From contig CAYTSI010000005.1 in assembly GCA_964440465.1 (NCBI GenBank), positions 151-64,150 of the forward strand: a stretch of 64,000 nucleotides of DNA, written 5' to 3'. A program made the position numbers and the translations under genes. Source of the stretch: an uncultured Spirochaetales bacterium. Lineage in GTDB: Bacteria > Spirochaetota > Spirochaetia > SPDA01 > CAZSGZ01. The notes beneath the pieces are model-generated. The model searched no databases. It was given only the letters and a program-made list of their open reading frames with translations, and had not been told where the DNA came from. This document shows positions 1 through 47,039 of the stretch, piece by piece (the first letter of the stretch is position 1; each line of letters starts with the position of its first letter).

Positions 1-736
1 CTTCGGTAATGCCGCCGTCGGTGATAAAGGCGTCGAAATCTTTTAAATCGGCGAAGTGGGTTGAATGCACCTTCCCGATTTTTGATGAATCGGCAACGAG
101 GATCGAAGATATACTCGAATCGATAATCGCCTTTTTTGTTTCCATCTCGTACTGGTTTGGGCAGGTAACGCCTAGATCTTTGCTGATTCCCCCGGCGGAG
201 ATAAAAGCTTTCGACGCCCTGGACCGCCGTATCAGGGAGATCCCCTCGGGGCTTTCAAACATCATCGTATTTTCATGAAGATATCCCCCGGCGAAGATGA
301 CGCGGCAGTTCTTCTTTTTCTGCAATTCCGCGAGGATGTTGAAAGAGTAGCAGATTACCGTCAGCGGCAGGTCCGCGGGAATGGAGCGCGCGATGTATTC
401 GGTAGTGGACCCGGCATCGATGCTGATAACGTCCTCCGCTTCGATGAGGGACGCGGCGTACCGGCCGATGGCTGCTTTTTCTTTCGTCTGTTTCGATCCC
501 GCCGTGATAAGGGAATAACTGATTTCACCCGATGGCGGTCCGCTGTTCTGGGCCGGATTTAAGACCGCGCCGCCGTGAAGGAGCTGGATGTAGTTTTGAT
601 CCTCGAGTTCCTGCAGGTCCCGCCGGATAGTCATGTGGGAAACGCCGAGCTTGTCGGCAAGTTCGTTTACCGACGCGGCATTATAAATCCGGAGAATTTT
701 CAGTATTTCATCTAACCGTTCCTTTTTATCGGCCAT
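1..736 (-). CDS. DeoR/GlpR-family transcriptional regulator, probably of the adjacent BMC operon. The start is at 734-736 and the C-terminus runs off the window edge.
   Basis: The reverse-strand translation begins MADKKERLDEILKILRIYNAASVNELADKLGVSHMTIRRDLQELE, which is an N-terminal HTH followed by a DeoR-type sugar-phosphate sensor domain. The ORF continues past position 1. It is absent from the ORF track only because it is truncated. Confidence 0.8.
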   Translation of the reverse strand, partial: MADKKERLDEILKILRIYNAASVNELADKLGVSHMTIRRDLQELEDQNYIQLLHGGAVLNPAQNSGPPSGEISYSLITAGSKQTKEKAAIGRYAASLIEAEDVISIDAGSTTEYIARSIPADLPLTVICYSFNILAELQKKKNCRVIFAGGYLHENTMMFESPEGISLIRRSRASKAFISAGGISKDLGVTCPNQYEMETKKAIIDSSISSILVADSSKIGKVHSTHFADLKDFDAFITDGGITE

Positions 737-747
737 TTCCCCCGCCT

Positions 748-777
748 TTACTTGACAAAAATGTATTATGGAATGTA
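748..777 (+). promoter_or_regulatory. Candidate sigma70-like promoter for the BMC operon: a TTGACA -35 box at 748-753 with an AT-rich -10 roughly 17-18 bp downstream.
   Basis: Sequence cTTGACAaaaatgtattatggaatgTAAAAT read directly. The site lies in the 125-bp gap between the divergent deoR-like gene and the first BMC gene. Confidence 0.35.
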
Positions 778-794
778 AAATAACTATCAATATA

Positions 795-835
795 TGTTAA
801 CAAAATACCATCGTTATGTTAAAATTATAACGTAA
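795..835 (+). promoter_or_regulatory. Direct-repeat candidate operator (ATGTTAACA ... ATGTTAAAA) upstream of the BMC operon, a possible DeoR binding site.
   Basis: Two ATGTTAA(C/A)A copies about 20 bp apart were seen in the sequence. DeoR-family repressors characteristically bind direct repeats. Confidence 0.25.
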
Positions 836-860
836 AACCAAGAAAAAGAAAAGGGAAGGG

Positions 861-1508
861 ATGAAAATTATGAATAATATTGATTTACGGACCTATATCT
901 ACTTAGATTCACTGCAGCCGCAGATGGCATCGTATATATCCACCATTTCCCGGGGATATTTTCCGGTGGCAGGTCAGGCGTGTATGGTCGTGGAGATCTC
1001 GCCGGGTATCGAGATCAACCGGCTGACGGACATCGCTTTAAAAGCGACGAACGTACGGCCTGGAATACAAATCGTCGAGCGGCTGTTCGGGCTCTTAGAG
1101 CTCCATTCCGACAGTCAGGCCGACGCGCGGCAGTCGGGGGAGTCGATCCTGAAAGAGCTCGACTTAACCGAAGCGGACAGGATGAAGCCGACGGTACTGA
1201 CCAGTCAGCTGATAAAAAACGTGGACGACCATCACGCTCAGCTTATCAATAAAGTGCGCTACGGCAACATGATCCTCCGGGGGGACACCCTCTATGTACT
1301 GGAGCTGCAGCCGGCGGGATATGCCTATTACGCCGCGAACGAGGCGGAAAAGGCCTCGCATATAAATATTATCAACGTGCAGGGCTACGGCAGTTACGGC
1401 CGTATTTATATAGCGGGACCGGAAGCGGAAGTTCTGGTCAGCCAGCAGATTGTTGAATCCCGCCTTTTGTCGTTAAGCGGCAGGGAAGCGGGCGGTAAAA
1501 AAGAATAA
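861..1508 (+). CDS. BMC-T shell protein of the permuted tandem-domain type (EutL/PduB-like).
   Basis: The 215-aa protein has two repeated halves that resemble EutL. Compare VEISPGIEINRLTDIALKATNVRPGIQIVERLFG with GDTLYVLELQPAGYAYYAANEAEKASHINIINVQGYG. The gene sits first in the BMC operon. Confidence 0.6.
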   Translation: MKIMNNIDLRTYIYLDSLQPQMASYISTISRGYFPVAGQACMVVEISPGIEINRLTDIALKATNVRPGIQIVERLFGLLELHSDSQADARQSGESILKELDLTEADRMKPTVLTSQLIKNVDDHHAQLINKVRYGNMILRGDTLYVLELQPAGYAYYAANEAEKASHINIINVQGYGSYGRIYIAGPEAEVLVSQQIVESRLLSLSGREAGGKKE

Positions 1509-1547
1509 CTAAAAGAATAACTAAAAGAATAACTAGAGGAGAAAAAA

Positions 1548-1856
1548 ATGGCAGAGGTATTTGAAAACGCATTGGGAATGATCGAAACAAAGAGCTTCGC
1601 CGCGATGGTTGAAGCATCGGACGCCATGGTCAAGGCGGCAAGGGTTGAACTGACGAACTGGGTCAACACAGGCGGCGGTTATGTAACATCCATCGTCCGG
1701 GGCGATGTCGCAGCGGTACGGGCGGCCTTAGACGCGGGCGGCCGGGCGGCTGAAAAAGTCGGTGAACTGATCAGCGTTCATATTATTCCCCGTCCCCATG
1801 ACAATGTGGACAGCGCGCTTCCGTTGGGACGGACACCGCAGGGCGGAAAGAAATAG
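1548..1856 (+). CDS. BMC-H hexameric shell protein (PduA/EutM-like).
   Basis: ALGMIETKSFAAMVEASDAMVKAARVEL ... VTSIVRGDVAAVRAALDAGGRAAEKVGELISVHIIPRPH is the canonical BMC domain (Pfam PF00936). Confidence 0.9.
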   Translation: MAEVFENALGMIETKSFAAMVEASDAMVKAARVELTNWVNTGGGYVTSIVRGDVAAVRAALDAGGRAAEKVGELISVHIIPRPHDNVDSALPLGRTPQGGKK

Positions 1857-1860
1857 GTAG

Positions 1861-2160
1861 ATGGTACTCGCGAAAGTAGTCGGAACGGTTGTAGCTACCC
1901 GAAAAGAGCCGAAGATCGAAGGGATAAAATTCCTGCTGATAGAAAAACTGGACCCGGCAACCATGAAGGGAAAAAAAGACTTTCTCGTGGCCATGGACAG
2001 TGTCGGCGCCGGTCCCGGAGAGGTTGTCTTTTACGTGTCCGGAAGTTCGTCGAGAATGACCGCGACGACGGAGGGCAAACCGAGCGACGCGACCATAACG
2101 GCGATCGTGGACGTAATCGAAATGGACGGGAAGACCGTTTATCACAAGGACAGGCCTTAA
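1861..2160 (+). CDS. BMC-P pentameric vertex protein (EutN/CcmL/PduN family), paralog 1.
   Basis: [15 protein letters not shown]...FLLIEK...[15 protein letters not shown] is the EutN/CcmL fold signature. Confidence 0.85.
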
Positions 2161-2163
2161 GCG

Positions 2164-2451
2164 ATGATTTTTGCACAAACTGTGGGAACGGTGGTGAGCA
2201 CCGCCCGAAGCGATGAGATAGAAGGGGCGAAATTCCTTTTAGTGCGGGAATGCAGCTACAAAGGAGAACTTTCTGACAATTACATGATCGCCCTCGACGC
2301 GGTGCAGACCGGCCCGGGAGAGATGGTCCTCATTGCCCAAGGCAGTTCCTGCCGTCAGACGGAAAACACCTTCCAGAAGCCGGTGGATGCCCTGATTGTG
2401 GGAATCGTCGATTCCATAGACGAGGGAGGGGACCTTGTCTTTAGAAAGTAA
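2164..2451 (+). CDS. BMC-P vertex protein, paralog 2.
   Basis: MIFAQTVGTVVSTARSDEIEGAKFLLVRE...ALDAVQTGPGEMVLIAQGSS is a EutN/CcmL family sequence. Confidence 0.85.
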   Translation: MIFAQTVGTVVSTARSDEIEGAKFLLVRECSYKGELSDNYMIALDAVQTGPGEMVLIAQGSSCRQTENTFQKPVDALIVGIVDSIDEGGDLVFRK

Positions 2452-3790
2452 GACCGCTGTCCGTCTCGCGGAGGCGGTCCGGGAGGCGGGTATCGTCGGC
2501 GCCGGCGGCGCCGGCTTCCCCACCCATAAAAAGCTCGGCGGGACCTGCCGCACGGTAATTGCCAACGGAGCCGAGTGTGAACCCCTTCTGCAGAGCGACA
2601 AATACATTATGGAAACGGAGGCGGAGAAAATCGCCGCCGCCCTCGAGCTTGCGGTGAATGAACTGCGGGCGGAAGAGGGGATTATCGCGGTAAAGGAGAA
2701 GAACAGCCGGGCTGTGGAGCGGCTCGAAGCAGCGGCGGCATCAAGGGTTGCTCTGTCCCTCTATCACCTTGAAAACTTCTATCCAGCGGGGGACGAGCAT
2801 GTGTTAGTCCATGAGATAACCGGAAAGGTAGTGCCCGAGGGGGGTATCCCGATTGCCGTGGGTGTTGTTGTCCTGAATGTGGAAACGCTGTTGAACATCT
2901 GCAACGCGGTATATGAATCGGCCCCGGTCACCCTGCGCACCGTTACCTGTACGGGAGAGGTGAAGACGCCGAAGGTGCTGCGGGTTCCGGTCGGTACGGC
3001 CATGCGGGACGTAATTCATGAGTGCGGGGGTGCTCTGGTGGAAGAACCCGCTATAATCATCGGCGGACCGATGATGGGAAAGGTCACCACCGATGTAGAT
3101 ACGCCGGTTGATAAACTGACCGGCGGAATTATCGTTTTGCCGAGGGACCACGATTGCATTCAACGGAAAACACGGCCGTTAGAAGTGCAGGTGCGGCTCT
3201 CGCGGAGCGCCTGCTGTCAGTGCGTACTGTGCAGCGAGCTCTGTCCCCGGGAGATGCTCGGGCATAATCTGTATCCGCACTTAATTATGCGGCAGATCAA
3301 TTACGGTCTTGATTTGCCGGAAGAAGCGCTGGCAGCGGCGGCGCTCTGCTGTGAATGCGGAGTGTGCGAGGTGTTCGCGTGTCCTATGGGGCTTTCCCCC
3401 TCCTTTATCAACGGAATTATCAAACAGCGGTTTGCCGAGGGGGGGTACAAGCCGGAGTTCCCCGACAGGGAGCCTAAGCCGCATGAGATGCGGGAATACC
3501 GCAAGGTGCCGGCACAGCGGATAATAGGCCGTTTGCGGCTTAACCGCTACGACGAGCCGATGTATGACCGGGGAGGCGCCGTTACACCGGAACGGGTTGA
3601 ATTGCCGCTGCGGCAGCACATCGGGGCGCCGGCGGTGCCGGTGGTTTCCCCCGGGGCAGCGGTGAAACGGGGAGACTTAATCGGGGAAATTCCCGAAGGG
3701 AGCTTAGGGGCACGGGTGCACGCCTCGGTTACGGGGACCGTTACACTGGTGGAGGAAAGCCGGATACTTATTACGGCATCAGGGGCATAA
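2435..3790 (+). CDS. PduS/RnfC-like Fe-S flavoprotein, a BMC-associated NADH-dependent oxidoreductase. A TTG start is used in the ORF track and the true start is uncertain.
   Basis: It carries the GAGGAGFPTHKKL nucleotide-binding motif and two 4Fe-4S ferredoxin motifs (CCQCVLCSELCP and CCECGVCEVFACP). The C-terminal barrel-sandwich-like domain gives the same domain order as PduS. Confidence 0.75.
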   Translation: MSLESKTAVRLAEAVREAGIVGAGGAGFPTHKKLGGTCRTVIANGAECEPLLQSDKYIMETEAEKIAAALELAVNELRAEEGIIAVKEKNSRAVERLEAAAASRVALSLYHLENFYPAGDEHVLVHEITGKVVPEGGIPIAVGVVVLNVETLLNICNAVYESAPVTLRTVTCTGEVKTPKVLRVPVGTAMRDVIHECGGALVEEPAIIIGGPMMGKVTTDVDTPVDKLTGGIIVLPRDHDCIQRKTRPLEVQVRLSRSACCQCVLCSELCPREMLGHNLYPHLIMRQINYGLDLPEEALAAAALCCECGVCEVFACPMGLSPSFINGIIKQRFAEGGYKPEFPDREPKPHEMREYRKVPAQRIIGRLRLNRYDEPMYDRGGAVTPERVELPLRQHIGAPAVPVVSPGAAVKRGDLIGEIPEGSLGARVHASVTGTVTLVEESRILITASGA

Positions 3791-3793
3791 CAT

Positions 3794-4345
3794 ATGGAAT
3801 ACAGCGTAATCGGAGTACTTGAATTTTCGGCAACGGCGGCGGGCATTCTGGCCTTAGACAGCATGGTGAAGGCCGCGCCGGTGAAAATTATCGACGCGAA
3901 AACGATTTGTCCCGGCAAGTTCTATATTATCGTTACCGGAGACGTTGCCTCGGTTGATGCCGCGCTGACGGCGGGCAAAAAAGCGGGCGAGGGGTACTTG
4001 ATCGACGAGCTCTTTATTACCAACCTGCAGGAGCAGGTAATTCCGGCCATTTTAGGAACGGTGGAAACGACGAAGTGGGAATCTTTAGGCGTTATCGAAT
4101 CGTTTTCCATTGTGTCGAGTATCGTCGCGGGGGATTTGGCGGCGAAAGCGGCGGCGGTGGAGCTGCCTGAAATCAGGCTTGCTACGGGAATGGCGGGTAA
4201 ATCGTATGTAAAGATGATCGGGACGGTGCATGAGGTGGAGGTCTCCATGAAGGCGGCGAAAGAGTATGTGGGAAAGCAGGGCCTGTTATGTAAGGACGTT
4301 ATTATTCCCCACGCGCACCCGGAAATGAAGCCGTTTATTTTATAG
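3794..4345 (+). CDS. BMC-T shell protein with tandem BMC domains (PduT-like).
   Basis: The 183-aa protein has two consecutive BMC domains, VIGVLEFSATAAGILALDSMVKAAPVKI and LGVIESFSIVSSIVAGDLAAKAAAVEL. The size and architecture match PduT. Confidence 0.8.
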   Translation: MEYSVIGVLEFSATAAGILALDSMVKAAPVKIIDAKTICPGKFYIIVTGDVASVDAALTAGKKAGEGYLIDELFITNLQEQVIPAILGTVETTKWESLGVIESFSIVSSIVAGDLAAKAAAVELPEIRLATGMAGKSYVKMIGTVHEVEVSMKAAKEYVGKQGLLCKDVIIPHAHPEMKPFIL

Positions 4346-4369
4346 GCACGGCGGAGGTAGGATACAGAT

Positions 4370-5815
4370 ATGCAGATAGATGAAAAAACGATACGGACGG
4401 TTGTCGAAGAGGTGTTAAAAGAGGTGAGCGCGGCGGCGGTGTCGTCCGCCTCGCCGCCCCGGACCCCTTCCCCGGCAGCCTCCTCTACATATCAGGGCTC
4501 ATTCAGTACCATGGACGCAGCCGTGCGCGCGGCGCATCAGGCGCATCTGGATTTAATGAACACGACGCTGGAAATACGGAGAAAAATGATCGATGCCATG
4601 CGGGAGACCATATGGTCCAATCTTTTTGTCCTGTCAAAAAAAGCGGTGGAGGAGACCGGCTTCGGCCGCACCGACGACAAGGTGAAGAAAAACCTTCTCG
4701 CGGCGAAGATGACACCCGGTGTGGAGGATTTAACGCCGACATCGTATACGGATGACCACGGACTTACCCTGACCGAACTCGCACCCTACGGCGTTATCGG
4801 GGCGATTGCTCCGAGTACGAACCCGACGGAGACGATTATCAGCAATGCCATTGGAATGGTAGCAGGCGGAAACACGGCGGTGTTTGGTCCCCACCCGGCC
4901 GCGAAGGAAGTTTCGAAATATACCATCTGCTTGTTAAACACGGCCATTCAGAAAGCCGGCGGACCGGCAAATGTTCTTACAACGGTGGACGAACCGACCA
5001 TCGAGGCCGCCCAGACGATGATGGACCATCCTCTCGTTTCGCTCTTAGTCGTGACCGGCGGCCCGGGAGTAGTAAAAGAGGCGATGAAACGGGCGAAAAA
5101 GGTCATTGCCGCGGGACCGGGGAACCCGCCGGTGGTGGTGGATGAAACCGCGGACATCGTGAAGGCCGGGAAAGATATCGTCGCGGGCGCGGGTTTGGAC
5201 AACAACATCATCTGTATTGACGAGAAAGAAGTCCTGGCGGTGGACTCTATTGCCGATCAGCTGAAGGCGGAAATGAAGAAAAACGGCGCCTTTGAACTGG
5301 ACCGGCAGCAGGCGGAGGCCCTGACGAAAATCGTCATTTCCGATCCCGGACGGCCGGGGCATGAAGGAATGGCGAATAAAAAATACGTGGGAAAAAACGC
5401 GTCCGTATTGGCGGACCTCATCGGCCTGAAGGTCCCCGAAGATACGCGCATCCTCATTGCCGAAGTCGACCGCGACCATCCGATGGTATGGACGGAACAG
5501 CTGATGCCCTTTATTCCGCTGGTGCGGATGAAGAGCGCCGATGAGGCGATCGATTTTGCCGTAGAATGCGAACACGGGTTTCGGCACACGGCAAGCATGC
5601 ATTCGAAAAACATCGAGCGGCTCTCAAGGATGGCGAAAGTCATGAACTGTTCCCTCTTTGTAAAAAACGGTTCGAATTTTAACGGCATGGCCTTCGGCGG
5701 CGCGGGCTACACCTCCTTTACCATTGCCAGTCCCACCGGCGACGGCTTTACCCGGGCGAGGACCTTTACCCGGGAACGGCGGTGTTCGCTCATTGATTAT
5801 TTTCGGATTGTGTAG
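4370..5815 (+). CDS. CoA-acylating aldehyde dehydrogenase (EutE/PduP-like) carrying an N-terminal encapsulation peptide.
   Basis: It has the ALDH-family core with GPGNPPVVVDETADI. The N-terminus is an amphipathic helix, IRTVVEEVLKEV, followed by a Pro/Ser/Ala-rich linker. That arrangement is typical of BMC cargo. Confidence 0.85.
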   Translation: MQIDEKTIRTVVEEVLKEVSAAAVSSASPPRTPSPAASSTYQGSFSTMDAAVRAAHQAHLDLMNTTLEIRRKMIDAMRETIWSNLFVLSKKAVEETGFGRTDDKVKKNLLAAKMTPGVEDLTPTSYTDDHGLTLTELAPYGVIGAIAPSTNPTETIISNAIGMVAGGNTAVFGPHPAAKEVSKYTICLLNTAIQKAGGPANVLTTVDEPTIEAAQTMMDHPLVSLLVVTGGPGVVKEAMKRAKKVIAAGPGNPPVVVDETADIVKAGKDIVAGAGLDNNIICIDEKEVLAVDSIADQLKAEMKKNGAFELDRQQAEALTKIVISDPGRPGHEGMANKKYVGKNASVLADLIGLKVPEDTRILIAEVDRDHPMVWTEQLMPFIPLVRMKSADEAIDFAVECEHGFRHTASMHSKNIERLSRMAKVMNCSLFVKNGSNFNGMAFGGAGYTSFTIASPTGDGFTRARTFTRERRCSLIDYFRIV

Positions 5816-5840
5816 GTTAAGGAAAATAGGAAGTGATGGA

Positions 5841-6113
5841 ATGAAATTAGGGAAAGTAATCGGAACGGTGGTGAGTACACAAAAGGTGGAGTCCTTCGAG
5901 GGGGTAAAGCTTCTTTTAGTACAGCCGTTAGATGAAAATTACGACGAGAAAGGCGGACCCTTAGCGGCGTGTGATACCGTTCAGGCGGGAGTTGGAGACA
6001 TTGTCCTTTATGAAGGCGGCCGGGAAGCCGCCCTGACGCTGGAAAACTGGTACAATCCGTCGGACGCGGCGGTAATGGCTATTGTCGACAGTACAAACCT
6101 GGAGGCAACCTAA
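5841..6113 (+). CDS. BMC-P vertex protein, paralog 3. The internal ATG at 5841 preceded by an aggaag RBS is preferred over the 5724 start.
   Basis: MKLGKVIGTVVSTQKVESFEGVKLLLVQ...DTVQAGVGDIVL is a EutN/CcmL family sequence. A Shine-Dalgarno sequence lies 7 nt upstream. Confidence 0.85.
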   Translation: MKLGKVIGTVVSTQKVESFEGVKLLLVQPLDENYDEKGGPLAACDTVQAGVGDIVLYEGGREAALTLENWYNPSDAAVMAIVDSTNLEAT

Positions 6114-6388
6114 TGCTTGTGGCTAAAGTAATCGGAACGGTTGTCGCCACGCGGAAGCATCCCGTTTTACAGGGGTATAAGCTGTTAATTGTGCAGCCGA
6201 AGGGGCCTGACGGAACGGATGCCGGCGGGATCGAGATTGCCCTCGATACGGTACAGGCAGGGACCGGCGAAACGGTGCTGCTGTTGACGGAGGGCAACTC
6301 TTCGAGGATGATTATCGGCGACGACATGGCCCCGGTACGTGCGGTGGTGGTCGGCATTATCGATGAGGTACAGTACGATGCAGTATAA
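6113..6388 (+). CDS. BMC-P vertex protein, paralog 4.
   Basis: [28 protein letters not shown]...DTVQAGTGETVLL is a EutN/CcmL family sequence. It overlaps the previous stop (TAATG). Confidence 0.85.
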   Translation: MLVAKVIGTVVATRKHPVLQGYKLLIVQPKGPDGTDAGGIEIALDTVQAGTGETVLLLTEGNSSRMIIGDDMAPVRAVVVGIIDEVQYDAV

Positions 6389-6929
6389 AAGTGATTCATC
6401 CATTGTACAAAATATCGTTTCCACGCTTCACACGGCCGCGGACCGGCCGCTTCCGGTGGAGAATACCGCGAACCAGGAAGACAAGGTCCTTCGGGTTGCC
6501 CTCGGGGCGGACCACGGCGGCTTCGAGGCGAAGGAGGCCCTGCGGGAGTATCTGAAGTCCTTAGGTTACCGTGTTACCGACGTCGGGACCGACAGTACCG
6601 AAAGCGTCGACTATCCCGATTTCGCGGTAAAGGTGGCGAAAAAAGTGGCCTCCGGGGAATGCGAGCGGGGAATTATGATCGACGGCGCGGGAATCGGATC
6701 GACGATGGTATGCAACAAGGTGCGGGGCATCCGCGCGGCGCTGTGCTACGATGTGAAAACAATCAGCAACAGCAGGGTGCACAATAACGCGAACGTGCTG
6801 TGCTTAGGCGGCCCCCTGCACGGCAGAGAGGAAATTTTTGAAATGGCAAAGCTGTGGCTAACCACGCGATTCGAGGGCGGCAGACACTGGCCGCGGATTA
6901 ATAAAATGATGGCAGTTGAACGAGGATAA
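6378..6929 (+). CDS. rpiB: Ribose-5-phosphate isomerase B / galactose-6-P isomerase family (RpiB/LacAB) with an N-terminal extension. The start is taken at ATG 6378.
   Basis: LRVALGADHGGFEAKEAL...GIMIDGAGIGSTMVCNKVRGIRAALCYD is the RpiB/LacAB signature. An extra amphipathic segment of about 35 aa (SIVQNIVSTLH) precedes the catalytic domain. Confidence 0.85.
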   Translation: MQYKSDSSIVQNIVSTLHTAADRPLPVENTANQEDKVLRVALGADHGGFEAKEALREYLKSLGYRVTDVGTDSTESVDYPDFAVKVAKKVASGECERGIMIDGAGIGSTMVCNKVRGIRAALCYDVKTISNSRVHNNANVLCLGGPLHGREEIFEMAKLWLTTRFEGGRHWPRINKMMAVERG

Positions 6930-6941
6930 GAGGATAGACAG

Positions 6942-7820
6942 ATGGAGCAGAAAGATTTAGTAGAAAAATTGACGAAAGAGGTTATCGCGCGGCTTACGCA
7001 GGAAGGCAGCGGCGTTACAGGCGGCGCGCCTGCAGGCGGCAGCAGGACAACGGCCTCCGGCGGCGTCGGCGGCAATATGGGCGGCGGCCGGTCATCGGGC
7101 GCCGTACAGGAAGGCGGCTCGGCTCAGGCGGCCGGTTCCGGGGAGCTCCGTCCCTCCGACCTCAATAAATATATCGACCACACTCTGCTCAAACCGGAGG
7201 CGACGAAAGAGCAGATCGACAAGCTCTGCGATGAGGCGAAGGAATACTCTTTTTATTCGGTATGCGTCAACTCGAGCTGGGTGGAATACTGCGCGAAAAA
7301 ACTCCGCGGAAGCGGAGTCAAAATCAGTGCCGTAGTGGGGTTCCCCTTAGGCGCCATGGAAGGCCGTGCGAAGGGTTATGAAACAAGACACGTCGTCGAG
7401 GCGGGTGCCGATGAAATAGATATGGTGATGAACGTGGGCGCCCTGAAATCGGGAGACACGAAAAAGGTTGAAGAAGACATCCGCTGGGTCCGCCGGTCCA
7501 CCCGGCAGAAGACGGTTGTAAAAGTAATTATCGAAGCGGCCCTGCTGACCGATGACGAGAAGGTGCTCGCCTGTCAGATTTCGAAAAACGCCGGCGCCGA
7601 TTTCGTAAAAACGTCCACCGGGTTTGCAAAAGGCGGCGCCACCGCCGAAGATGTCGCCCTGATGCGGCGCACCGTCGGTCCGAAGACGGGCGTTAAAGCT
7701 GCCGGGGGGATCCGCTCCTTCGAAGATGCTGTGAAGATGATCAATGCCGGCGCGACTCGCTTAGGCACCAGTTCCAGCGTAGAGATTGTTACGGGGCAAA
7801 AGAGCACGTCGGCGTACTAA
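6942..7820 (+). CDS. deoC: Deoxyribose-phosphate aldolase (DERA) with an N-terminal encapsulation peptide and Gly-rich linker.
   Basis: The DeoC core is present (YIDHTLLKPEAT...VCVN...KVIIE..L...VKTSTGF, with the Schiff-base lysine region). The first 70 aa are an amphipathic helix, DLVEKLTKEVIARL, followed by a GGAPAGGSRTTASGGVGGNMGGG linker. Confidence 0.9.
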   Translation: MEQKDLVEKLTKEVIARLTQEGSGVTGGAPAGGSRTTASGGVGGNMGGGRSSGAVQEGGSAQAAGSGELRPSDLNKYIDHTLLKPEATKEQIDKLCDEAKEYSFYSVCVNSSWVEYCAKKLRGSGVKISAVVGFPLGAMEGRAKGYETRHVVEAGADEIDMVMNVGALKSGDTKKVEEDIRWVRRSTRQKTVVKVIIEAALLTDDEKVLACQISKNAGADFVKTSTGFAKGGATAEDVALMRRTVGPKTGVKAAGGIRSFEDAVKMINAGATRLGTSSSVEIVTGQKSTSAY

Positions 7821-7907
7821 AGACCGGACACCAGCCTCCCAAAAAGGTCCGGCGAAACGCGAAACGCTAATATTGACAACCAGTATTCAAATCGCTATCG
7901 TTATCAT

Positions 7908-8276
7908 ATGGGGACGTTTCATATCAGCTGTAAAGTAGAAAACCATATTGACCGCGGGAAAAATACTACAGTTAAAAACCTATTAGTAGACACCGGAAGC
8001 GGATTTACCTGGCTCCCCGCCTCGGAACTGGAGAACATCGATGTTGCCCGTGAGAAAAAAGATCTGCCTTTTATTATGGCAAACGGTCAAAGGATTACCA
8101 GGGACGCCGGCTTCGCGATCATCCGTGTAGAAGACCATTTCACCATTGATGAGGTTGTATTCGCGGAGGAAGGGGACTTGCTGCTGTTAGGCGCCCGCAC
8201 TTTAGAAGGACTGAACCTCCGGGTCGATTCGGTCCGGAAGAAACTCGTGGCCGCCGGACCGCTCCCGGCCGCGTAG
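7908..8276 (+). CDS. Retropepsin-like (clan AA) aspartic protease domain protein. It is cytoplasmic and has a single DTG.
   Basis: LLVDTGSGFTWL contains the D-T/S-G-S active-site motif. Length is 122 aa with no signal peptide. It resembles the bacterial Asp_protease_2 / Ddi1-like families. Confidence 0.6.
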   Translation: MGTFHISCKVENHIDRGKNTTVKNLLVDTGSGFTWLPASELENIDVAREKKDLPFIMANGQRITRDAGFAIIRVEDHFTIDEVVFAEEGDLLLLGARTLEGLNLRVDSVRKKLVAAGPLPAA

Positions 8277-8533: not shown

Positions 8534-9682
8534 ATGAATAGAGAACGAAAAAAAAGGCGGACACTAAAAAAGAGCGGGCCGATGATGTCCCGCCTGTACG
8601 GAGACACCGGCGTTAACGTTTCCGCGTTAGGTTTCGGCGGGATGCGGTTTGAGAAACCGGACGATATCGAGCATTCCGCCGAGACGGTGTTCCACGCCTT
8701 CGAGCGGGGGATTACCTATTTCGATACGGCGCCGGGGTATTTCGACGGTAAGTCGGAGGAGGCCGTCGGTACGGCGGTAAACGAGATGAAGAAAACCGGC
8801 AGGCCTTTTTATATATCCACGAAATCAAACAAGGCGGACGGTGCCGTGGTCCGGAAAGAGCTGGAAGAAAGCCTGAAGCGGCTGAATCTCGACTGTATCG
8901 ATTTTTATAACTGCTGGTACGTACTGACATTAGAGGATTGGGAAAAACGGAAAAACGGCGGGGCAGTGGAAGCAATTCTAAAGGCGCGGGACGAGGGGCT
9001 TGTCCGCTTTCCGGTATTTTCCACCCACCTTCCGGGAGACGCGGTACGTACGGTCATTGAAGAGGGATATTTCCGCGGCGTTACCCTCGGCTATTCGGCC
9101 ATCAATTTTCCCTACCGGGAAGAGGGGATACGGGCAGCCGGAGAGAACAATCTCGGTGTTGTCGTTATGAACCCCTTAGGGGGAGGAACAATTGTAAACA
9201 ATGCCGATGCCTTTCAATTTATCAAACGGGACAGCAAACAGACCGTTTTAGAGGCGGCCCTTCATTTTCTCTGGGCCCACGATGAAATTACGGTCGCGTT
9301 AGTAGGATGCAGGAACAAGTCCGATGTGGACGATGCCGCTGCCGCCGCGGCATCGTACGTACCCTATTCGGACGAAGATATCTCTAAAATAAAGAAGAAC
9401 ATTACCCGGGACTTCAACCAGCTGTGTACAAGCTGTACCTACTGTGATGTTTGTCCCGAAGACATCCCTGTCTGGAAGTTTGTGGAAACTGCAAACCATG
9501 TTATTTTAGGCTCTTCCGCGTCACTGTCCGGACGACTGAAATACTACTGGGGGGCTGATCCGACGGCCATGGAGCGGTGTATCCGGTGCGGGCAGTGTGA
9601 AAGTGCCTGCACCCAGCATATACCGATTATGGAACGGTTTGAGATGCTGAAAACAGCATTGACGGAGGAACCTACAAAGTAA
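8534..9682 (+). CDS. Aldo/keto reductase with a C-terminal 2x[4Fe-4S] ferredoxin-like domain. The start may instead be at 8582.
   Basis: AKR N-terminal motifs are present (GxxVSALGFGGMRF, YFDTAPGY). The C-terminal motifs are CTSCTYCDVCP and CIRCGQCESAC. Confidence 0.8.
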   Translation: MNRERKKRRTLKKSGPMMSRLYGDTGVNVSALGFGGMRFEKPDDIEHSAETVFHAFERGITYFDTAPGYFDGKSEEAVGTAVNEMKKTGRPFYISTKSNKADGAVVRKELEESLKRLNLDCIDFYNCWYVLTLEDWEKRKNGGAVEAILKARDEGLVRFPVFSTHLPGDAVRTVIEEGYFRGVTLGYSAINFPYREEGIRAAGENNLGVVVMNPLGGGTIVNNADAFQFIKRDSKQTVLEAALHFLWAHDEITVALVGCRNKSDVDDAAAAAASYVPYSDEDISKIKKNITRDFNQLCTSCTYCDVCPEDIPVWKFVETANHVILGSSASLSGRLKYYWGADPTAMERCIRCGQCESACTQHIPIMERFEMLKTALTEEPTK

Positions 9683-23192: not shown

Positions 23193-23561
23193 ATGCCGTT
23201 TAGTATTTTGGAAAAAGACAGGAAGACATTTGAATATTTTAAAAAATACGTTGAGTTTTTAGAGCTCGAGGAAAACACCTGTCTCATCCTTGACAACAAG
23301 ATACAATCCGAGGAAATCCAGGAGCATTTGCGCCGGACCGGTCATAACAGCGGAATGGATGGAAGGAAAAAAGAGATTATTTCACAGTGGATTAAAGAAA
23401 ATGCCCGTCCGTTCCGGGATTATCTGAACAGCATCAAACTTGCCTATGTCGTATGGAAATGCATGGGCAAAGAATGGTCCGAGATAACCTGGGAAGAGTT
23501 CTTCAAAATCGAAGAGCGCCTCAATTCCCTCAAGTACAAATGTCTCGATACGATTTTTTAA
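23193..23561 (+). CDS. Hypothetical protein of 122 aa.
   Basis: ORF only. No motif was recognised. Confidence 0.35.
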   Translation: MPFSILEKDRKTFEYFKKYVEFLELEENTCLILDNKIQSEEIQEHLRRTGHNSGMDGRKKEIISQWIKENARPFRDYLNSIKLAYVVWKCMGKEWSEITWEEFFKIEERLNSLKYKCLDTIF

Positions 23562-25399
23562 GAAAACATCATGCTGTTCACGTAATCGTCCATAAACTCC
23601 GGCGAAGATGACAATTCAATATATTCGGTCTGTTCACTCAGTGCCCCGCATTCCTGTAATTTTTCCCGGGACAGCAGCGCCATAATCGCGCCGGAGCCGG
23701 CTGCATTGCCGATAACTTCAATCTTGTTTTCCAGTTCTTTGGGAATAAGGCCGATATGTATTGCGTGATGTTTATCGATATAGCTGCCGAATCCGCCCGC
23801 GAGGAACACCCGTTCGATATCATGAACGCTCTTACCGGCGGTTTTCATGAGGGTGGTTATTCCCGCTGCAATTGAAGCTTTCGCGTTTTGCACCTCCCGT
23901 ATGTCCTTCTGGGTAAGAAGAATTGCATCGCCGTGGGACGTATCTTCAGCCTTTACCAAGGTGTAGGCGGTCTGTTTGTCGAGTTTGGTCAGGTTTTCCG
24001 CTAAATGCTTTCCGGTTTCGTTTTCTATATCATCGGCATCAACCATCCTGCCGGTTTCATCGATAATACCGGCATAGAGCAGGTTGGAAATGGCATCCAC
24101 AATTCCGGAACCGCAAATGCCTAAAGGTTTTTTATCGGCAATGGTAGTACAGGATATCGATGAATCGTGAAGGGCGACCGTATCGATTGCTCCGGCTATT
24201 CCTCCGACTCCGTCCCTGATGGTGGCGCCTTCAAATGCCGGTCCGGCCGCGGTGGAACAGGAAAGCAGCCGGTCCTTGTTTCCGAGCATAATTTCACCGT
24301 TTGTTCCGATGTCGATGAGGAGGCTCAAGCTTTCTTCTTTTGCCATTCCGCTGGCCAATGTAGCGGCGGTAATGTCCGCGCCGATATAGGCTGAAATCCC
24401 GGGCAGCAGATAGATCCACCCCTGTTCGGCAATGGCAATCCCCATTTCAGCCGCGGTTGTCCGCGTCATTTCCAGACTGGCGGGGATAAAGGGCGCCGCG
24501 GCGATATTTTTCGGAGGTATTCCCGCCGCGAGGTGCATCATGGTGGAGTTCCCCACGATGGTCATGCTGTAGATGCTCTTCCGGTCAATTGCATATTTGG
24601 AGACAAGCGAATCGATGAGGTCATTCAGCTGCCCGATAATGCCGTTGTGCAGTGTTTCCAAGCCCTGTTCATTCGTCATGGTGTGATTTATCCGGGCAAT
24701 AACGTCCTGTCCGTAACTTTTCTGCACGTTCAGGCCGGAGGCCACGCCGATTTTTTTCCCGGAAGTCATGTCTAAAAGATAGACGACCACGGTTGTTGTC
24801 CCGATATCCACCGCCAGGCCGTAATTGATATCTTCGGTGTTCCCCTGCTCGATGGTCAGAATCTGCGCGTCGTTGTAGACCGCGGTAGCGGAAAAACCGT
24901 TGTCCCGAAGCACCGAGGGCAGTTTTCCGATCTCATTCAGCGTAATCCTGTGGTCCGGCAGTTTGAGTTCGTCCCGAAGCCTTTTCAGGTCGTCCCGCTG
25001 GTCTTCTAAGGTCGGCTTGGAAAGGGAAACATATTTCTTTTTAATGCATGGGTTTAGATGTTCCCGAAACTCGCTGCTGTCCTCTAATATAACGATCTGT
25101 CCGGACTTGTCGTTTAAGGTAACGGTAATGTCTCCGGTTATCTGAGTAGAACAGGCAAGTCTGTATCCCCGGGCGAGTTCGGTTTCCGACAGTTTTTTCT
25201 TTTCAATTTCGGTAACGCCGGAAGCTCCGTCCCCCTCTACACGGACAAGGCATTTGCCGCAGGTCCCCCTCCCCCCGCAGGGTGTTTCGATAAACGACCT
25301 GTATTTTTCACCCACCGCTTCTAAAATCGTAGTTTCTTTTTTGCATGATACCGTTTCTGTTTCGTTTTCGGTAATAATGGTAACGTTGTATTCTGACAT
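23558..25399 (-). CDS. RACo-type ATP-dependent reductive activase of corrinoid proteins: a 2Fe-2S ferredoxin domain plus an ASKHA ATPase (DUF4445).
   Basis: The N-terminal plant-type ferredoxin motif is CGGRGTCGKC. It is followed by a Gly-rich ASKHA-fold region of about 550 aa, as in RamA/RACo. Confidence 0.7.
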   Translation of the reverse strand: MSEYNVTIITENETETVSCKKETTILEAVGEKYRSFIETPCGGRGTCGKCLVRVEGDGASGVTEIEKKKLSETELARGYRLACSTQITGDITVTLNDKSGQIVILEDSSEFREHLNPCIKKKYVSLSKPTLEDQRDDLKRLRDELKLPDHRITLNEIGKLPSVLRDNGFSATAVYNDAQILTIEQGNTEDINYGLAVDIGTTTVVVYLLDMTSGKKIGVASGLNVQKSYGQDVIARINHTMTNEQGLETLHNGIIGQLNDLIDSLVSKYAIDRKSIYSMTIVGNSTMMHLAAGIPPKNIAAAPFIPASLEMTRTTAAEMGIAIAEQGWIYLLPGISAYIGADITAATLASGMAKEESLSLLIDIGTNGEIMLGNKDRLLSCSTAAGPAFEGATIRDGVGGIAGAIDTVALHDSSISCTTIADKKPLGICGSGIVDAISNLLYAGIIDETGRMVDADDIENETGKHLAENLTKLDKQTAYTLVKAEDTSHGDAILLTQKDIREVQNAKASIAAGITTLMKTAGKSVHDIERVFLAGGFGSYIDKHHAIHIGLIPKELENKIEVIGNAAGSGAIMALLSREKLQECGALSEQTEYIELSSSPEFMDDYVNSMMFS

Positions 25400-25444
25400 A
25401 GGACATCCTTTCTTACATATAGAATTTTTAATATATTGATTAAT

Positions 25445-25720
25445 TTACATCGATTTTATCAATTGTTCAAGTCTGTTTTCGGTAATAATTGAACCGGCAC
25501 TGACCTGTTTTCCCCGAACAAGAAGGGCGGGAAACTGATGAATTTCAACACCGGGTACCGTGCATTCTTCATCCGCCCGGAGTTTTACATGATTTATTTG
25601 TATATCGGGATGTTTGGTCTGTATCTCACGCAATACTTCACGAACAATTTGATCGCTAATTGTGCAGGAAGCGCAATGCTGGTCTTTTGAAACAAGGGTA
25701 ATGGTAACAGGTTCAGCCAT
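25445..25720 (-). CDS. Small thioredoxin-like protein with a CxxC motif.
   Basis: The 91-aa protein has CASC and a thioredoxin-like layout. Confidence 0.5.
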   Translation of the reverse strand: MAEPVTITLVSKDQHCASCTISDQIVREVLREIQTKHPDIQINHVKLRADEECTVPGVEIHQFPALLVRGKQVSAGSIITENRLEQLIKSM

Positions 25721-26651
25721 TTCCTTCTATTGTACACGCTTTAATGCTTTGCGCAAGAGATTCTTCGCTGATGCTGCCGCGGATAAGGACGATTTTGCTG
25801 CTGTTTGCTTCGAGAAGCGCGGGAACAGGGGGTTTTTCGGAATAGACGCCGTCAATAATTTCAAAGTACTTCGGACCTTCGGGAAAGCGGAGGACCCCTT
25901 TGCCACGGAGTATTTCCGGTTGTATTTTTTTAATATACGCCTCCCATTTCCCCCGGTCGAGGAGGGCTTTCAGTTCAATACTGAAAGAGAAAAAATTATC
26001 CGGCGGTGTATCGCTGCATTTTTCGGGGACATCCTTCTGCCGCGGCGCGATTTCTTCCAGTGCGTCCCGGGAAACTTCCCCGAAACGGGCGGGAAAGATG
26101 GGGGCGGATTCATTATGTTCCCGCAGAAGCTTTTCCGTTTCTTCCAACCGCTCCGGCGTTACCGTGTCGACTTTATTCAGAATAAAGGCGTCGGCGTATT
26201 CTGCCTGGATCTGTACCGCCTCTAAGGTGGCCTCGACTTTATGAAAATTCGCCGCGTCGATAACACAGAAATTCTGTTCCAGTGATATCAGCTTATCGAG
26301 CCCGTCGAGGCGCATCATGGCATACATATCATCCACCCGGGCGATCCCGGTTGCTTCGATAAGGAGAAAATCGGGCCGCGTCTTCTCCGCTATGTTTTTC
26401 AGCTCCGCGATAAAATCGGTGCGCATGCATACGCAGAAAATGCTGCCCTTGTTGAGTTCGATTTTGTAAAAATCGCCCTCCCGTACCAGGGCGCCGTCAA
26501 TCCCGATGGACCCGAACTCATTAATCATCACCGCGAGTTTTCCGCCCCGGGTACTGTACCATTCGATAAGCCGGTTAATAAGTGTCGTTTTCCCGGCGCC
26601 TAAGAACCCCGTAACCAGGACGGTTTTAATTAGAGGATAGCTTTGATCCAT
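25713..26651 (-). CDS. COG0523 (CobW/ZNG1-like) G3E-family GTPase, a putative metallochaperone.
   Basis: The P-loop is GFLGAGKTT, and the C-terminal CobW_C-like region is present. Confidence 0.8.
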   Translation of the reverse strand: MDQSYPLIKTVLVTGFLGAGKTTLINRLIEWYSTRGGKLAVMINEFGSIGIDGALVREGDFYKIELNKGSIFCVCMRTDFIAELKNIAEKTRPDFLLIEATGIARVDDMYAMMRLDGLDKLISLEQNFCVIDAANFHKVEATLEAVQIQAEYADAFILNKVDTVTPERLEETEKLLREHNESAPIFPARFGEVSRDALEEIAPRQKDVPEKCSDTPPDNFFSFSIELKALLDRGKWEAYIKKIQPEILRGKGVLRFPEGPKYFEIIDGVYSEKPPVPALLEANSSKIVLIRGSISEESLAQSIKACTIEGNG

Positions 26652-28249
26652 TCCTTAATAACCTCTTTGTCGATTACCTTTCCGAAAGATTTGAGTTCTT
26701 TTTTAACGGAAATGACCGCCGGCAGTTTTTTTACCTTTAAATCGCGGATTTCGTCGGTATCATTAACCCGTTCGATGGTAATATTGCTTCCCAGTTCCCG
26801 CTGGGCCCTGTTGATGTTGTCGAGCAGCTCCATCGATTCGTCGGAACCGTCGTCTATAACGATCAGTTTCGAGTCGGCCCGCTTAATCCGCGCCCGTTCA
26901 ATCATCCTCTTGTAGACGGCATGGACTAAGTCTTCCCGTTTCGGGATTTGGCTGATAAAAGCAACCTGCCCGTCGATACAGATGGTGGGCACTTTTTCCA
27001 CATGCAGAGCCTCCATCAGTTCGATGGATTCCTTTGTTTTAATTTTATGTTCCCGCCATTCGACCACCCCTTCGAACTCCGGCGCGATTTCCTGCACGCT
27101 TTCCACCATGTACTGACAGGGGGCGCAGGATTCGGAGTCAAGGGTTATGATATCAACCTTGATTTTATCCAGGCCGCCGTAATCGGACATGTCCAGGTCG
27201 GAATGTTCGGCCACCTCTGTCCCCACTAACTCCATGGCAACCTGAAGCTTGTAATCGTCCTTCAGCATTTCCGAAACGGCGATAATGTTTTCCTTCGGTA
27301 CGCCGAAGGGAATATCGCATCCCGGGGCGAGGATAAATCCCGTTTTTCCGCCGGTCTGCAGGCATTCCGCCGCGTGCCGGAGGTTGTCCTTTTCATCCCC
27401 GAAGAGCATGATCGTTGTCAGGCGCATATTGCCGCCGAAGGAAACGTTGTATTTTTCAGCGGTCTCCCGAACGTAATCGAGGGGAATGTTTTCATCAATT
27501 GATACATTGTCGGGCCTGCATTTACACATGGCCTCGACATTTTTCTGGGCGTGGCCGCATACAAAAAAGGATGAGTAGGTGTTTTCCTCCCGAATATGGG
27601 AAAAAATGTCGGAGCAGTATTTTGAGACGTAGGTCCCGAAATCTTTCGGGCTTATCTGGCTTGTCATAGGATCGACAACCGCAATCACATCGCAGCCGTT
27701 TTTTATGTAGTAGGAAGCCATTTTTTTCCCAATTTCCGTACCGAATCGCATTACCTCATGGACTTTCTCCGGATTATCGTACATTTCCATAAAGATTTCC
27801 GGCCCTAACAGGTGCAGTGACAATGTAAAGGGCCCTGTTATCAGGCCGTACAGGGCCACTTCGGGGTATTTCTCCCGGATCTTCCGGGTAACTTCCATAA
27901 TCATCGGAATACGACCCTTGGTTTCATTCAATTCCGGAAGGTCCTCCAGTTTTTTTCCGCCTGTAAGGGCGTGGCTGGATACCGCCGGCGGATTGTCCCG
28001 GGCCCAGATCAGGTCGCAGCCTAAAATTTCCGCTTCCACCTGCAGGTCGAAAATGACCGGGATCCCGTCGGGCCGGTAGGTGTCAACTGCCGCGGAAATG
28101 CCCGCGATCATATTGTCTTTGCTTTTTAAAAACTCCTCGGCCCCCATTCCCAGAAGGGCCGCCGCGTGCACCCCCACAAAGGGGACATAGGGTACACGGA
28201 GGGTCTCTTTATTTTGAATAGCTGTTACTACGAGTTCTTTACCTGTCAA
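26630..28249 (-). CDS. Uroporphyrinogen-decarboxylase (URO-D) family methyltransferase, MtaA/CmuA-like, fused to a C-terminal thioredoxin-like domain.
   Basis: It has an N-terminal URO-D/MtaA-like barrel of about 340 aa. The C-terminal segment of about 180 aa has CAPC and a Trx-like VPTICIDGQ motif. Confidence 0.65.
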   Translation of the reverse strand: MTGKELVVTAIQNKETLRVPYVPFVGVHAAALLGMGAEEFLKSKDNMIAGISAAVDTYRPDGIPVIFDLQVEAEILGCDLIWARDNPPAVSSHALTGGKKLEDLPELNETKGRIPMIMEVTRKIREKYPEVALYGLITGPFTLSLHLLGPEIFMEMYDNPEKVHEVMRFGTEIGKKMASYYIKNGCDVIAVVDPMTSQISPKDFGTYVSKYCSDIFSHIREENTYSSFFVCGHAQKNVEAMCKCRPDNVSIDENIPLDYVRETAEKYNVSFGGNMRLTTIMLFGDEKDNLRHAAECLQTGGKTGFILAPGCDIPFGVPKENIIAVSEMLKDDYKLQVAMELVGTEVAEHSDLDMSDYGGLDKIKVDIITLDSESCAPCQYMVESVQEIAPEFEGVVEWREHKIKTKESIELMEALHVEKVPTICIDGQVAFISQIPKREDLVHAVYKRMIERARIKRADSKLIVIDDGSDESMELLDNINRAQRELGSNITIERVNDTDEIRDLKVKKLPAVISVKKELKSFGKVIDKEVIKEWIKAIL

Positions 28250-28388
28250 TATATTCTCCTTACATATGAATATACAAAAATTGCCGCTCTGGAGAAAGGA
28301 TGATCTTTCTAATTTTTGTAATTCCTCTTCCTCCGTCCCCTCATTTATGGTATTTTAGCTGTGGACCCGCAAAATAGAAGGAGAAGAT

Positions 28389-29285: not shown

Positions 29286-29299
29286 CAAAAGGACGGAAC

Positions 29300-30349: not shown

Positions 30350-30356
30350 CCGCGGC

Positions 30357-46835: not shown

Positions 46836-46865
46836 CTTCCCCCAATTAACGCGGCCGCCCAAAAC

Positions 46866-46923
46866 CTCTATATATAGTGGAATTAGCCGCAACAATATCA
46901 CTATATCACACCATATATTGTGT
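46866..46923 (-). promoter_or_regulatory. Two NrdR-box-like palindromes (cCTCTATATATAGTGG at about 46866-46881 and ACACCATATATTGTGT at 46908-46923) upstream of nrdR.
   Basis: Both match the NrdR box consensus acaCwAtATaTwGtgt. They lie just upstream of the proposed nrdR start on the same strand. Confidence 0.55.
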
Positions 46924-47039
46924 TGCAACACAATTCTAATATTTTTATCGACATTTCTTGCCAAACCCTAAACGGATGTGTGTAAAATTTTCGGTAACGG
47001 GTATATACTGATACCAATGACCACTGTAAGGAGATATGA

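Follow-up and report, generated by a model that had tools for sequence, protein, structure and literature searches.

A 64,000-nucleotide stretch of DNA from an uncultured Spirochaetales bacterium (GenBank assembly GCA_964440465.1, contig CAYTSI010000005.1, forward-strand positions 151 to 64,150; hereafter the window) carries near its start an operon for a bacterial microcompartment (BMC). Open reading frame (ORF) listing and profile searches place 11 tightly packed genes on the plus strand between positions 861 and 7820, with no overlap longer than 17 nt, no gap wider than 39 nt, and purine-rich runs resembling ribosome-binding sites ahead of most starts (Table 1). All 11 ORFs are intact and the operon is complete. 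On its composition, gene order, and nearest relatives, the locus is assigned to the sugar-phosphate utilising (SPU) class of BMCs, subtype SPU2, and probably serves to break down deoxyribose-5-phosphate. A sequence-only reading made earlier had described the same 11 genes in the same order and on the same strand, with a divergent DeoR regulator upstream. All are present at or near the positions it gave, and the minus-strand DeoR gene starts at 736.

Gene identities, gene order, motifs, and the conservation of starts and helices are direct observations; three start codons call for comment. The longest ORF for the third pentamer gene would begin at 5724, and its start is placed at the ATG at 5841. 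For the RpiB-family gene, the ATG at 6378 (183 aa) is the most likely start rather than the GTG at 6339, because the gene calls on three metagenome contigs (L001–L003; such handles denote contigs and loci used for comparison) begin there. The first gene has two in-frame ATGs, at 861 and 870, and could start at the latter. Most of its near-identical database members are 212 aa long versus 215 aa here, and the copy on L001 has small indels relative to the window. Its exact start is uncertain, without functional consequence.

Table 1. Coordinates of the microcompartment operon, its divergent regulator, and the intervening control region.
Feature	Position	Strand	Length	Evidence or remark
DeoR-family regulator, divergent	736 to <1	-		C-terminal part lost at window edge; translation MADKKERLDEILK...
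Promoter-like site, TTGACA-18-TAAAAT	752-781	+		11/12 consensus match; consensus match only
Imperfect inverted repeat, ATGTTAACAAAA/TTATGTTAAAAT	794-825			DeoR-BMC intergenic region; overlaps second promoter-like site
Second promoter-like site	797-825	+		consensus match only
CcmP-like BMC-Tdp	861-1508	+	215 aa	NF053796 1.5e-84; PDB CcmP 1e-71
BMC-H	1548-1856	+	102 aa	PF00936 98.7 bits
BMC-P 1 (pentamer/vertex family)	1861-2160	+	99 aa	PF03319 89.9 bits
BMC-P 2	2164-2451	+	95 aa	PF03319 86.4 bits
PduS/RnfC-like flavoprotein	2435-3790	+	451 aa	PF01512, PF10531, PF13534, PF13375
PduT-like BMC-Ts	3794-4345	+	183 aa	two PF00936 domains, 126 bits
CoA-acylating aldehyde dehydrogenase (PduP/EutE type)	4370-5815	+	481 aa	NF011927 645.7 bits
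BMC-P 3	5841-6113	+	90 aa	PF03319 89.9 bits
BMC-P 4	6113-6388	+	91 aa	PF03319 93 bits
RpiB-family protein	6378-6929	+	183 aa	PF02502 178 bits
DeoC-family aldolase	6942-7820	+	292 aa	PF01791 52.8 bits

Shell proteins

The shell calls were held against Pfam thresholds. The BMC-H, BMC-Ts, and BMC-P proteins all pass, and the first gene product, with 16.4 bits against PF00936, falls under the 24.5 cutoff. That the first gene might not encode a shell protein at all is nevertheless ruled out by its full-length homology to CcmP, seen both with the NCBIfam model NF053796 and in the PDB, where the best matches are CcmP itself (4HT5/5LSR), BMC-T of H. ochraceum (~6e-66), and CsoS1D (1.3e-51). The precomputed Pfam call is CsoS1D_N, and the weak PF00936 score is likely due to circular permutation. 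The permuted BMC-T that the earlier reading placed first in the operon is borne out by these matches and can be named more exactly as a protein of the BMC-Tdp class. It is an unambiguous homologue of CcmP, and its own double stacking and gating are predicted. It is called CcmP-like rather than CcmP because its NF053796 score of 282.9 bits lies under the 340-bit equivalog cutoff. The Glu-Arg pair that forms the pore gate in the CcmP and CsoS1D structures is kept as E73/R74 in the alignment with CcmP (...iqivERlfgl vs ...vqfiERlygl).

The remaining facet proteins are conventional in their motifs. BMC-H has the usual KAA and PRPH interface motifs, found in the sequence as DAMVKAA and IIPRPH. BMC-Ts matches TIGR02526 (eut_PduT) at 4.4e-31, under the equivalog cutoff, and has the pore motif KTICPGKF with its cysteine at position 39.

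The four PF03319 genes form two adjacent pairs and represent four distinct orthogroups. The window paralogs are only 33–43% identical to each other. Mean identity to the positional orthologues of five other loci is 73% for P1, 51% for P2, 63% for P3, and 52% for P4, and identity to any other paralog group is 46% or less. Since each protein is closest to its own positional counterpart elsewhere, Bacteroidota loci included, the four are old orthogroups. That they arose by recent tandem duplication, or are peculiar to this genome, is ruled out by the low paralog identity together with the positional orthology. The P3 and P4 genes are always adjacent and immediately upstream of the isomerase-family and aldolase genes in SPU2-type loci. 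Four BMC-P genes occur in nine of nine SPU2-type loci with the whole operon on the contig; four are present in the window, L007, L008, L009, and L084–L087. The count of four given in the sequence-only reading is correct; its description as unusual is out of date, as four is the stated SPU2 norm.

A further suggestion, which we hold to be rather doubtful, is that the four proteins, being ancient, position-specific, and conserved across at least two phyla, are not redundant vertex caps and that P3 and P4 may do more than cap the 12 vertices. Their added role could be docking of the aldolase–isomerase core, formation of mixed pentamers, or the setting of shell size. With its 11 close-set genes, the operon would lend itself well to asking what the BMC-P proteins do.

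Putative cargo enzymes and their N-terminal helices

The aldehyde dehydrogenase (AldDH) matches PF00171 at 114.8 bits and is closest to PDB 5JFL, a BMC-associated CoA-acylating enzyme with which it aligns from residue 24 (3.7e-130). Its catalytic cysteine lies in the motif DNNIICIDEKE, which aligns to the same structure. The N-terminus consists of a helix, KTIRTVVEEVLKEV (residues about 3–20), and a Pro/Ser/Ala-rich linker (about 21–42). Orthologues in SPU2-type loci have the same start and the pattern M-x-I/L-x-E-x-x-I/V-R-x-V/I-V-x-E-V-L/I-K, followed by a variable linker.

The core of the DeoC-family enzyme, a deoxyribose-phosphate aldolase (DERA), aligns from residue 73 with the solved DERA 5DBU (9.5e-80), and its catalytic D160, K194, and K223 do not vary across an alignment of 30 homologues. 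The extension of ~70 aa opens with MxxxELVxxITxxVLxRL, kept in 29 of the 30 homologues; the exception, P0113, is N-terminally truncated. In the homologues, a Gly/Ala/Ser/Pro linker of variable length follows the helix, and the barrel starts at L-x-P-x-D-L-x-x-Y-I-D-H-T. An AlphaFold2 model from the same alignment has a helix at residues 3–22 (predicted local distance difference test, pLDDT, about 83), a disordered Gly-rich linker at 24–65 (pLDDT <50), and a confident TIM barrel from about residue 71. DERAs of Streptococcus and Bacillus, in whose loci no shell genes were found, align only from about residue 72.

The RpiB-family protein (RPI) likewise begins with an amphipathic helix, SSIVQNIVSTL, and a linker of roughly 20 aa. 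The helix fits the pattern (D/E)-x2-I-x2-I-V-Q-x-V-L in L004 and L011 as well as in other SPU subtypes. The N-terminal helix is missing from some RPIs of SPU2 (L005, L007–L009), which fits the 2021 catalogue of BMC loci, where encapsulation peptides (EPs) were scored on about half of the DERAs and a third of the RPIs; the shortfall was later attributed to mis-annotated starts. With starts corrected, all SPU DERAs bear an N-terminal extension, and RPI carries an EP (Dwyer 2024, Commun Biol 7:1562).

By hydrophobic moment, the N-terminal helix ranks first of 467 sequence windows in AldDH, second of 169 in RPI, and 19th of 278 in DERA. PDB homologues align only from residues 24–38 in AldDH, 36–39 in RPI, and 55–77 in DERA. 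Mis-called starts as the source of these extensions are ruled out, as the DERA helix is kept in all but one homologue and the AldDH and RPI helices, with their Met position, recur at the same start in orthologous loci. All three enzymes are described as carrying EP-like helices with a putative targeting function. This agrees with the earlier claim of an amphipathic helix plus flexible linker on each, Pro/Ser/Ala-rich on AldDH and Gly-rich on DeoC.

The identity of RPI as an enzyme is another matter. The protein scores 149.7 bits against TIGR01120, above the 138.65 cutoff, and its fold and family as given by the sequence-only reading stand. The isomerase label needs qualifying, as both members of the catalytic pair are replaced: Cys (C66 in E. 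coli, C65 in C. thermocellum) by Asp and the adjacent Thr by Ala, so that iviCgTg of C. thermocellum (3HE8/3PH3) reads imiDgAg (IMIDGAGIG) in the window. The same Asp is found wherever the motif of an SPU RPI can be read in 120-residue extracts. RpiB is used here as the name of a fold and family rather than of a demonstrated activity, and the substitutions fit the inactive, DERA-binding RPI reported in 2024. In that study, the RPI of an SPU6 locus, also without the active-site Cys, had little or no ribose-5-phosphate isomerase activity and formed a roughly 1:1 complex with DERA, and the SPU6 DERA was active on deoxyribose-5-phosphate (Dwyer 2024, Commun Biol 7:1562). The window protein is without the catalytic Cys and Thr and is more probably a DERA-binding packaging partner than a ribose-5-phosphate isomerase.

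The main alternative is a compartment for some other sugar phosphate, in which RPI is an active isomerase with Asp as the base and feeds or drains a pentose or tetrose phosphate for the DeoC-family aldolase. The protein keeps its phosphate- and sugar-binding residues (DHGG, HNN, and GGRH..R), and its gene is kept beside that of DERA in nearly all SPU2 loci. LacA of galactose-6-phosphate isomerase likewise carries Asp at the Cys position (Dwyer 2024); RpiB enzymes are broad in specificity, and Dwyer et al. 2024 leave the isomerase possibility open. Beside the locus of some relatives (L087) are genes for class II aldolase or transaldolase. Set against these points are the loss of both catalytic residues, the fully canonical DERA active site with its close match to 5DBU, and the contrasting activities of SPU6 RPI and DERA on their respective substrates (Dwyer 2024). 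Nor does the locus encode a transketolase that would join ribose-5-phosphate to the aldolase, an argument made by Dwyer 2024. On balance, a substrate other than deoxyribose-5-phosphate is decidedly unlikely.

Proposed recycling of NAD+

The PduS homologue contains Complex1_51K (PF01512), SLBB (PF10531), Fer4_17 (PF13534), and, at its C-terminus, RnfC_N (PF13375) domains, and it scores 249.5 bits against TIGR01945 (rnfC). Its FMN/NADH-binding domain is accompanied by two 4Fe-4S motifs, CxxCxxCxxxCP and CxxCxxCxxxxCP. The BMC-Ts gene, with its CPGK pore motif, starts 3 nt after it (3790, 3794). On these features, the flavoprotein is identified as a metabolosome NADH dehydrogenase (MNdh) and BMC-Ts as its BMC-T(SE) partner. 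Published work supports a path by which electrons pass from NADH to FMN, to the two 4Fe-4S clusters, and to a 4Fe-4S cluster in the CPGK pore of the Ts encoded beside it (bioRxiv 2024.07.15.603600, PMC11275729). The mechanism draws on modelling, footprinting, electron paramagnetic resonance, voltammetry, and in vitro NADH-oxidation assays of another pair, and 361 loci have PduS/T but no alcohol dehydrogenase (PMC11275729). A commentary has been devoted to the module (PNAS 122:e2423449122), and PduS is named as an alternative NAD+ recycling route in SPU loci (Dwyer 2024, Commun Biol 7:1562). The proposal that the PduS-like flavoprotein recycles the cofactor matches this in vitro mechanism by analogy. 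Its companion remark that recycling was unresolved is superseded, as the mechanism was already published.

The original description of PduS was that of a cobalamin reductase (PMC11275729), and the window contains corrinoid-related genes: CobT (29300–30349), RACo (23558–25399), CobW (25713–26651), and MttB (60230–61654). A PduS/Ts pair serving cobalamin reduction instead of NAD+ recycling might be entertained on these grounds, as might a decayed or non-functional locus. The corrinoid genes, however, lie >15 kb off and are part of methyltransferase systems, the locus encodes no B12-dependent signature enzyme, and the 2024 work argues against a cobalamin role in BMCs other than PDU and EUT (PMC11275729). 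Decay is at odds with 11 intact, close-set ORFs preceded by RBS-like sequences and with conserved catalytic and cluster-binding residues. Both ideas are highly improbable.

Of the related loci, L004, L084, and L085 share PduS with the window, and L005, L007–L009, L086, and L087 lack it. A contig from the same population that extends further (L001) carries, directly downstream of DeoR (3–2739, minus strand), genes for electron-transfer flavoprotein (ETF) beta, a 405-aa ETF-alpha, and a FAD_binding_4 protein (GlcD/LctD-like). The trio resembles an operon for an LctBCD-type, ETF-dependent lactate dehydrogenase. Membership in the BMC system is not supported, as the trio is absent beside SPU2 loci L085–L087; it is probably unrelated to the BMC, and co-regulation could in principle occur. 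That this ETF/FAD-oxidase (LctBCD-like) system just outside the window serves as the cytosolic sink for MNdh electrons is something that could be imagined, with less behind it than the suggestion made above for the BMC-P proteins.

Assignment to SPU2

The SPU class was defined by Axen 2014 and has since been expanded to seven subtypes, with >280 loci spread over 26 phyla (Sutter 2021, Nat Commun 12:3809). Subtype statistics are those of Sutter 2021, Suppl. Data 2. SPU2 is found mostly in Bacteroidetes and Spirochaetes. Its enzymes are restricted to AldDh, pfam01791, and pfam02502, with N-terminal EPs; triose-phosphate isomerase (TPI), phosphotransacylase (PTAC), or alcohol dehydrogenase occur in only a few loci. 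The shell comprises one or two BMC-H, a BMC-P triplet plus one extra copy (four in all), and a CcmP-like Tdp. A PduS homologue co-occurs with Ts in roughly one locus in four, and Ts has the pore cysteine in 80%.

The window combines an extended DeoC-type pfam01791 aldolase and a pfam00171 acylating AldDH with shell genes, as in SPU loci generally. Four BMC-P genes, a CcmP-like Tdp, and enzymes limited to AldDh, pfam01791, and pfam02502 are the marks of SPU2. The sequence-only reading had inferred an SPU compartment from DERA, AldDH, and the RpiB-like protein; this is supported, and the locus fits the SPU2 definition point by point. Its description of the class as little studied is out of date, given the number of catalogued loci and the biochemical characterization of DERA and RPI in 2024.

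Related loci were collected by a genome scan with the DERA alignment and by look-ups of close homologues. Their common order is (H)-Tdp-H-P-P-(PduS)-Ts-AldDH-P-P-RPI-DERA. It is found in Spirochaetota (L009, L086), in the metagenome contigs L084, L085, and L087, and in Bacteroidota (L007, L008). The Spirochaetota contig fragments L004 and L005 agree over their content, and an Atribacterota fragment (L011) agrees from AldDH onward. The closest SPU loci are those of Spirochaetota, one of the two main SPU2 phyla. Two relatives provide supporting context for nucleoside or deoxyribose catabolism: a pyrimidine-nucleoside phosphorylase gene ends about 3.5 kb upstream of L085, and in L086 the DeoR gene is separated from those of the shell by one for a PfkB kinase. 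In L011, a PduL-type phosphotransacylase gene (4353–5000) lies immediately after DERA, an example of the few SPU2 loci with PTAC.

The rest of the window was covered by scanning a further 44 ORFs, each 90 aa or longer and chosen by greedy non-overlapping selection, against Pfam. These scans found no PTAC (PF06130), iron-containing alcohol dehydrogenase (PF00465), TPI (PF00121), or class II aldolase (PF00596) in the 64 kb. A PduL probe, the S. enterica sequence, had no match in the window (best E = 0.66) and matched nine comparison loci including L011, which serves as a positive control. Satellite shell genes were likewise sought in the 64-kb window and none was found, so that no hidden PTAC, alcohol dehydrogenase, TPI, or shell gene elsewhere in the window was detected. 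The earlier statement that no PduL-like phosphotransacylase or alcohol dehydrogenase is present is confirmed and describes what is also the SPU2 norm.

Proposed pathway

The steps of the pathway are each drawn from homologues and from other BMCs. Deoxyribose-5-phosphate from DNA or deoxynucleoside breakdown would enter a shell built of BMC-H, the gated Tdp, Ts, and four BMC-P. Inside, DERA would cleave it to acetaldehyde and glyceraldehyde-3-phosphate, the latter leaving the compartment. AldDH would convert the trapped acetaldehyde to acetyl-CoA with formation of NADH. MNdh would regenerate NAD+ by passing electrons from NADH through FMN and its two 4Fe-4S clusters to the CPGK-held 4Fe-4S cluster of Ts and on to a cytosolic acceptor. 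Without a phosphotransacylase, acetyl-CoA and CoA presumably cross through the large gated pore of Tdp. A Tdp is typical of SPU loci that have no PTAC and could give acetyl-CoA a way out (Dwyer 2024, Commun Biol 7:1562). The N-terminal amphipathic helices on their flexible linkers would recruit AldDH, DERA, and RPI, the last acting as the DERA-binding packaging partner. The probability that this model as a whole is correct is put at roughly 85%. The chemistry of the sequence-only reading, from deoxyribose-5-phosphate through acetaldehyde to acetyl-CoA within the shell, holds up as an interpretation.

Several points weigh against the model. No gene for a nucleoside phosphorylase, phosphopentomutase, or deoxyribokinase lies within the operon, and the supply of deoxyribose-5-phosphate is not evident from it; the substrate of the window compartment is a prediction. 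The underlying biochemistry comes from DERA and RPI of SPU6 (Chloroflexi) and from the MNdh/BMC-T(SE) pair of another BMC, not from SPU2, and purified shells with cargo are not known for any SPU subtype. The role of RPI may be read in more than one way, and both the electron acceptor in the cytosol and the way in which CoA and acetyl-CoA cross the shell are putative. As some three in four SPU2 loci are without PduS (Sutter 2021, Suppl. Data 2), NAD+ recycling must also be possible in another way.

The points that had been flagged as unusual or open, namely the four BMC-P proteins, the missing PTAC and alcohol dehydrogenase, and the role of PduS, are already in print, and nothing in the locus is conceptually new. 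The questions that remain, why there are several BMC-P proteins, why RPI is altered, and what accepts the electrons of MNdh, are those of the field rather than of this window. The locus adds one more intact SPU2 example, from a microbial-mat bacterium, and lends support to the idea that compartmentalized catabolism in anoxic sediments and mats commonly uses deoxyribose phosphate derived from DNA. As a compact set of 11 genes with the MNdh/BMC-T(SE) pair and three EP-like helices, it could be used for heterologous reconstitution of SPU2, and for asking why four pentamer paralogs and a catalytically altered RPI are kept.

Regulation and neighboring genes

The full-length copy of the regulator on L001 is 262 aa long and matches HTH_DeoR and DeoRC. 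A DeoR gene also flanks the SPU2 loci L085, L086, and L087. The inverted repeat between DeoR and the first shell gene is a candidate DeoR operator, and the divergent regulator probably serves to induce the operon upon the appearance of a sugar phosphate. A third promoter-like site (7873–7901) falls in the 87 nt that separate DeoC from the following ORF, which begins at 7908.

Downstream of DeoC on the plus strand are a gene for a retropepsin-like aspartyl protease domain protein (7908–8276), with sub-threshold Pfam matches, and one for an aldo/keto reductase with a fused 4Fe-4S dicluster domain (8534–9682). Both are also found downstream in the 87%-identical relative L084 and are conserved only there. 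Considered as members of the locus, they are treated as neighbors on account of this narrow conservation and the promoter-like site ahead of them. L086 has a plain aldo/keto reductase gene on the opposite strand next to DeoC. It is conceivable that such a reductase detoxifies escaped aldehydes.

Further along the window, an IS200-like Y1 transposase gene (PF01797; 15837–16343, minus strand) has a nitroreductase-like gene on one side and a mannitol-dehydrogenase/PfkB kinase pair on the other. A corrinoid methyltransferase set (23558–31271) comprises a RACo-type activase, a CobW GTPase, a thioredoxin-fused URO-D/MtaA-like methyltransferase, a homocysteine S-methyltransferase, and CobT; the MttB-family methyltransferase gene at 60230–61654 is separate from it. 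The anaerobic ribonucleotide reductase NrdD is seemingly split (43692–46351, minus strand). One ORF (44225–46351) covers Pfam NRDD positions 1–538 and an ATP-cone. The other (43692–44228), which overlaps it by 4 nt, covers NRDD positions 532–562, with the glycyl-radical motif TRIVGYY, and ends in a Cys-containing thioredoxin-like tail. The split gene is flanked by those of the NrdG activase (42910–43671) and NrdR (46368–46964).

Comparison with known systems

The closest known system is SPU2 itself (Sutter 2021; Dwyer 2024), with which the window shares its enzymes, EPs, single BMC-H, four BMC-P, CcmP-like Tdp, and pore-cysteine Ts. There is no essential difference; the window belongs to the roughly one-quarter of loci with PduS beside Ts. 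EPs were scored on only part of the DERAs and RPIs in the catalogue, whereas all three window enzymes have an N-terminal helix.

The DERA–RPI pair of SPU6 (Chloroflexi; Dwyer 2024) is alike in its DERA extension, Asp/Lys/Lys site, RPI EP, substituted Cys, and gene adjacency. The SPU6 DERA extension is a helix and two strands, whereas that of the window is modeled as the single helix 3–22 with a disordered Gly-rich linker of roughly 40 residues. The RPI linker is about 75 residues long in SPU6 and about 20 in the window. The AldDH EP is C-terminal in SPU6 and N-terminal in the window, and PduS, present in the window, is missing from SPU6.

The MNdh/BMC-T(SE) module (PMC11275729) is matched in its domain set, its two Cys4 motifs, the position of PduS immediately upstream of a CPGK Ts, and the presence of AldDH without alcohol dehydrogenase. 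Electron transfer was measured on another pair and is predicted for that of the window. Finally, CcmP of the beta-carboxysome (4HT5, 5LSR) and BMC-T2/T3 of H. ochraceum (5V74) resemble the window Tdp over their full length and in the retained Glu-Arg pair. CcmP belongs to a carboxysome, whereas the window Tdp belongs to a catabolic metabolosome.

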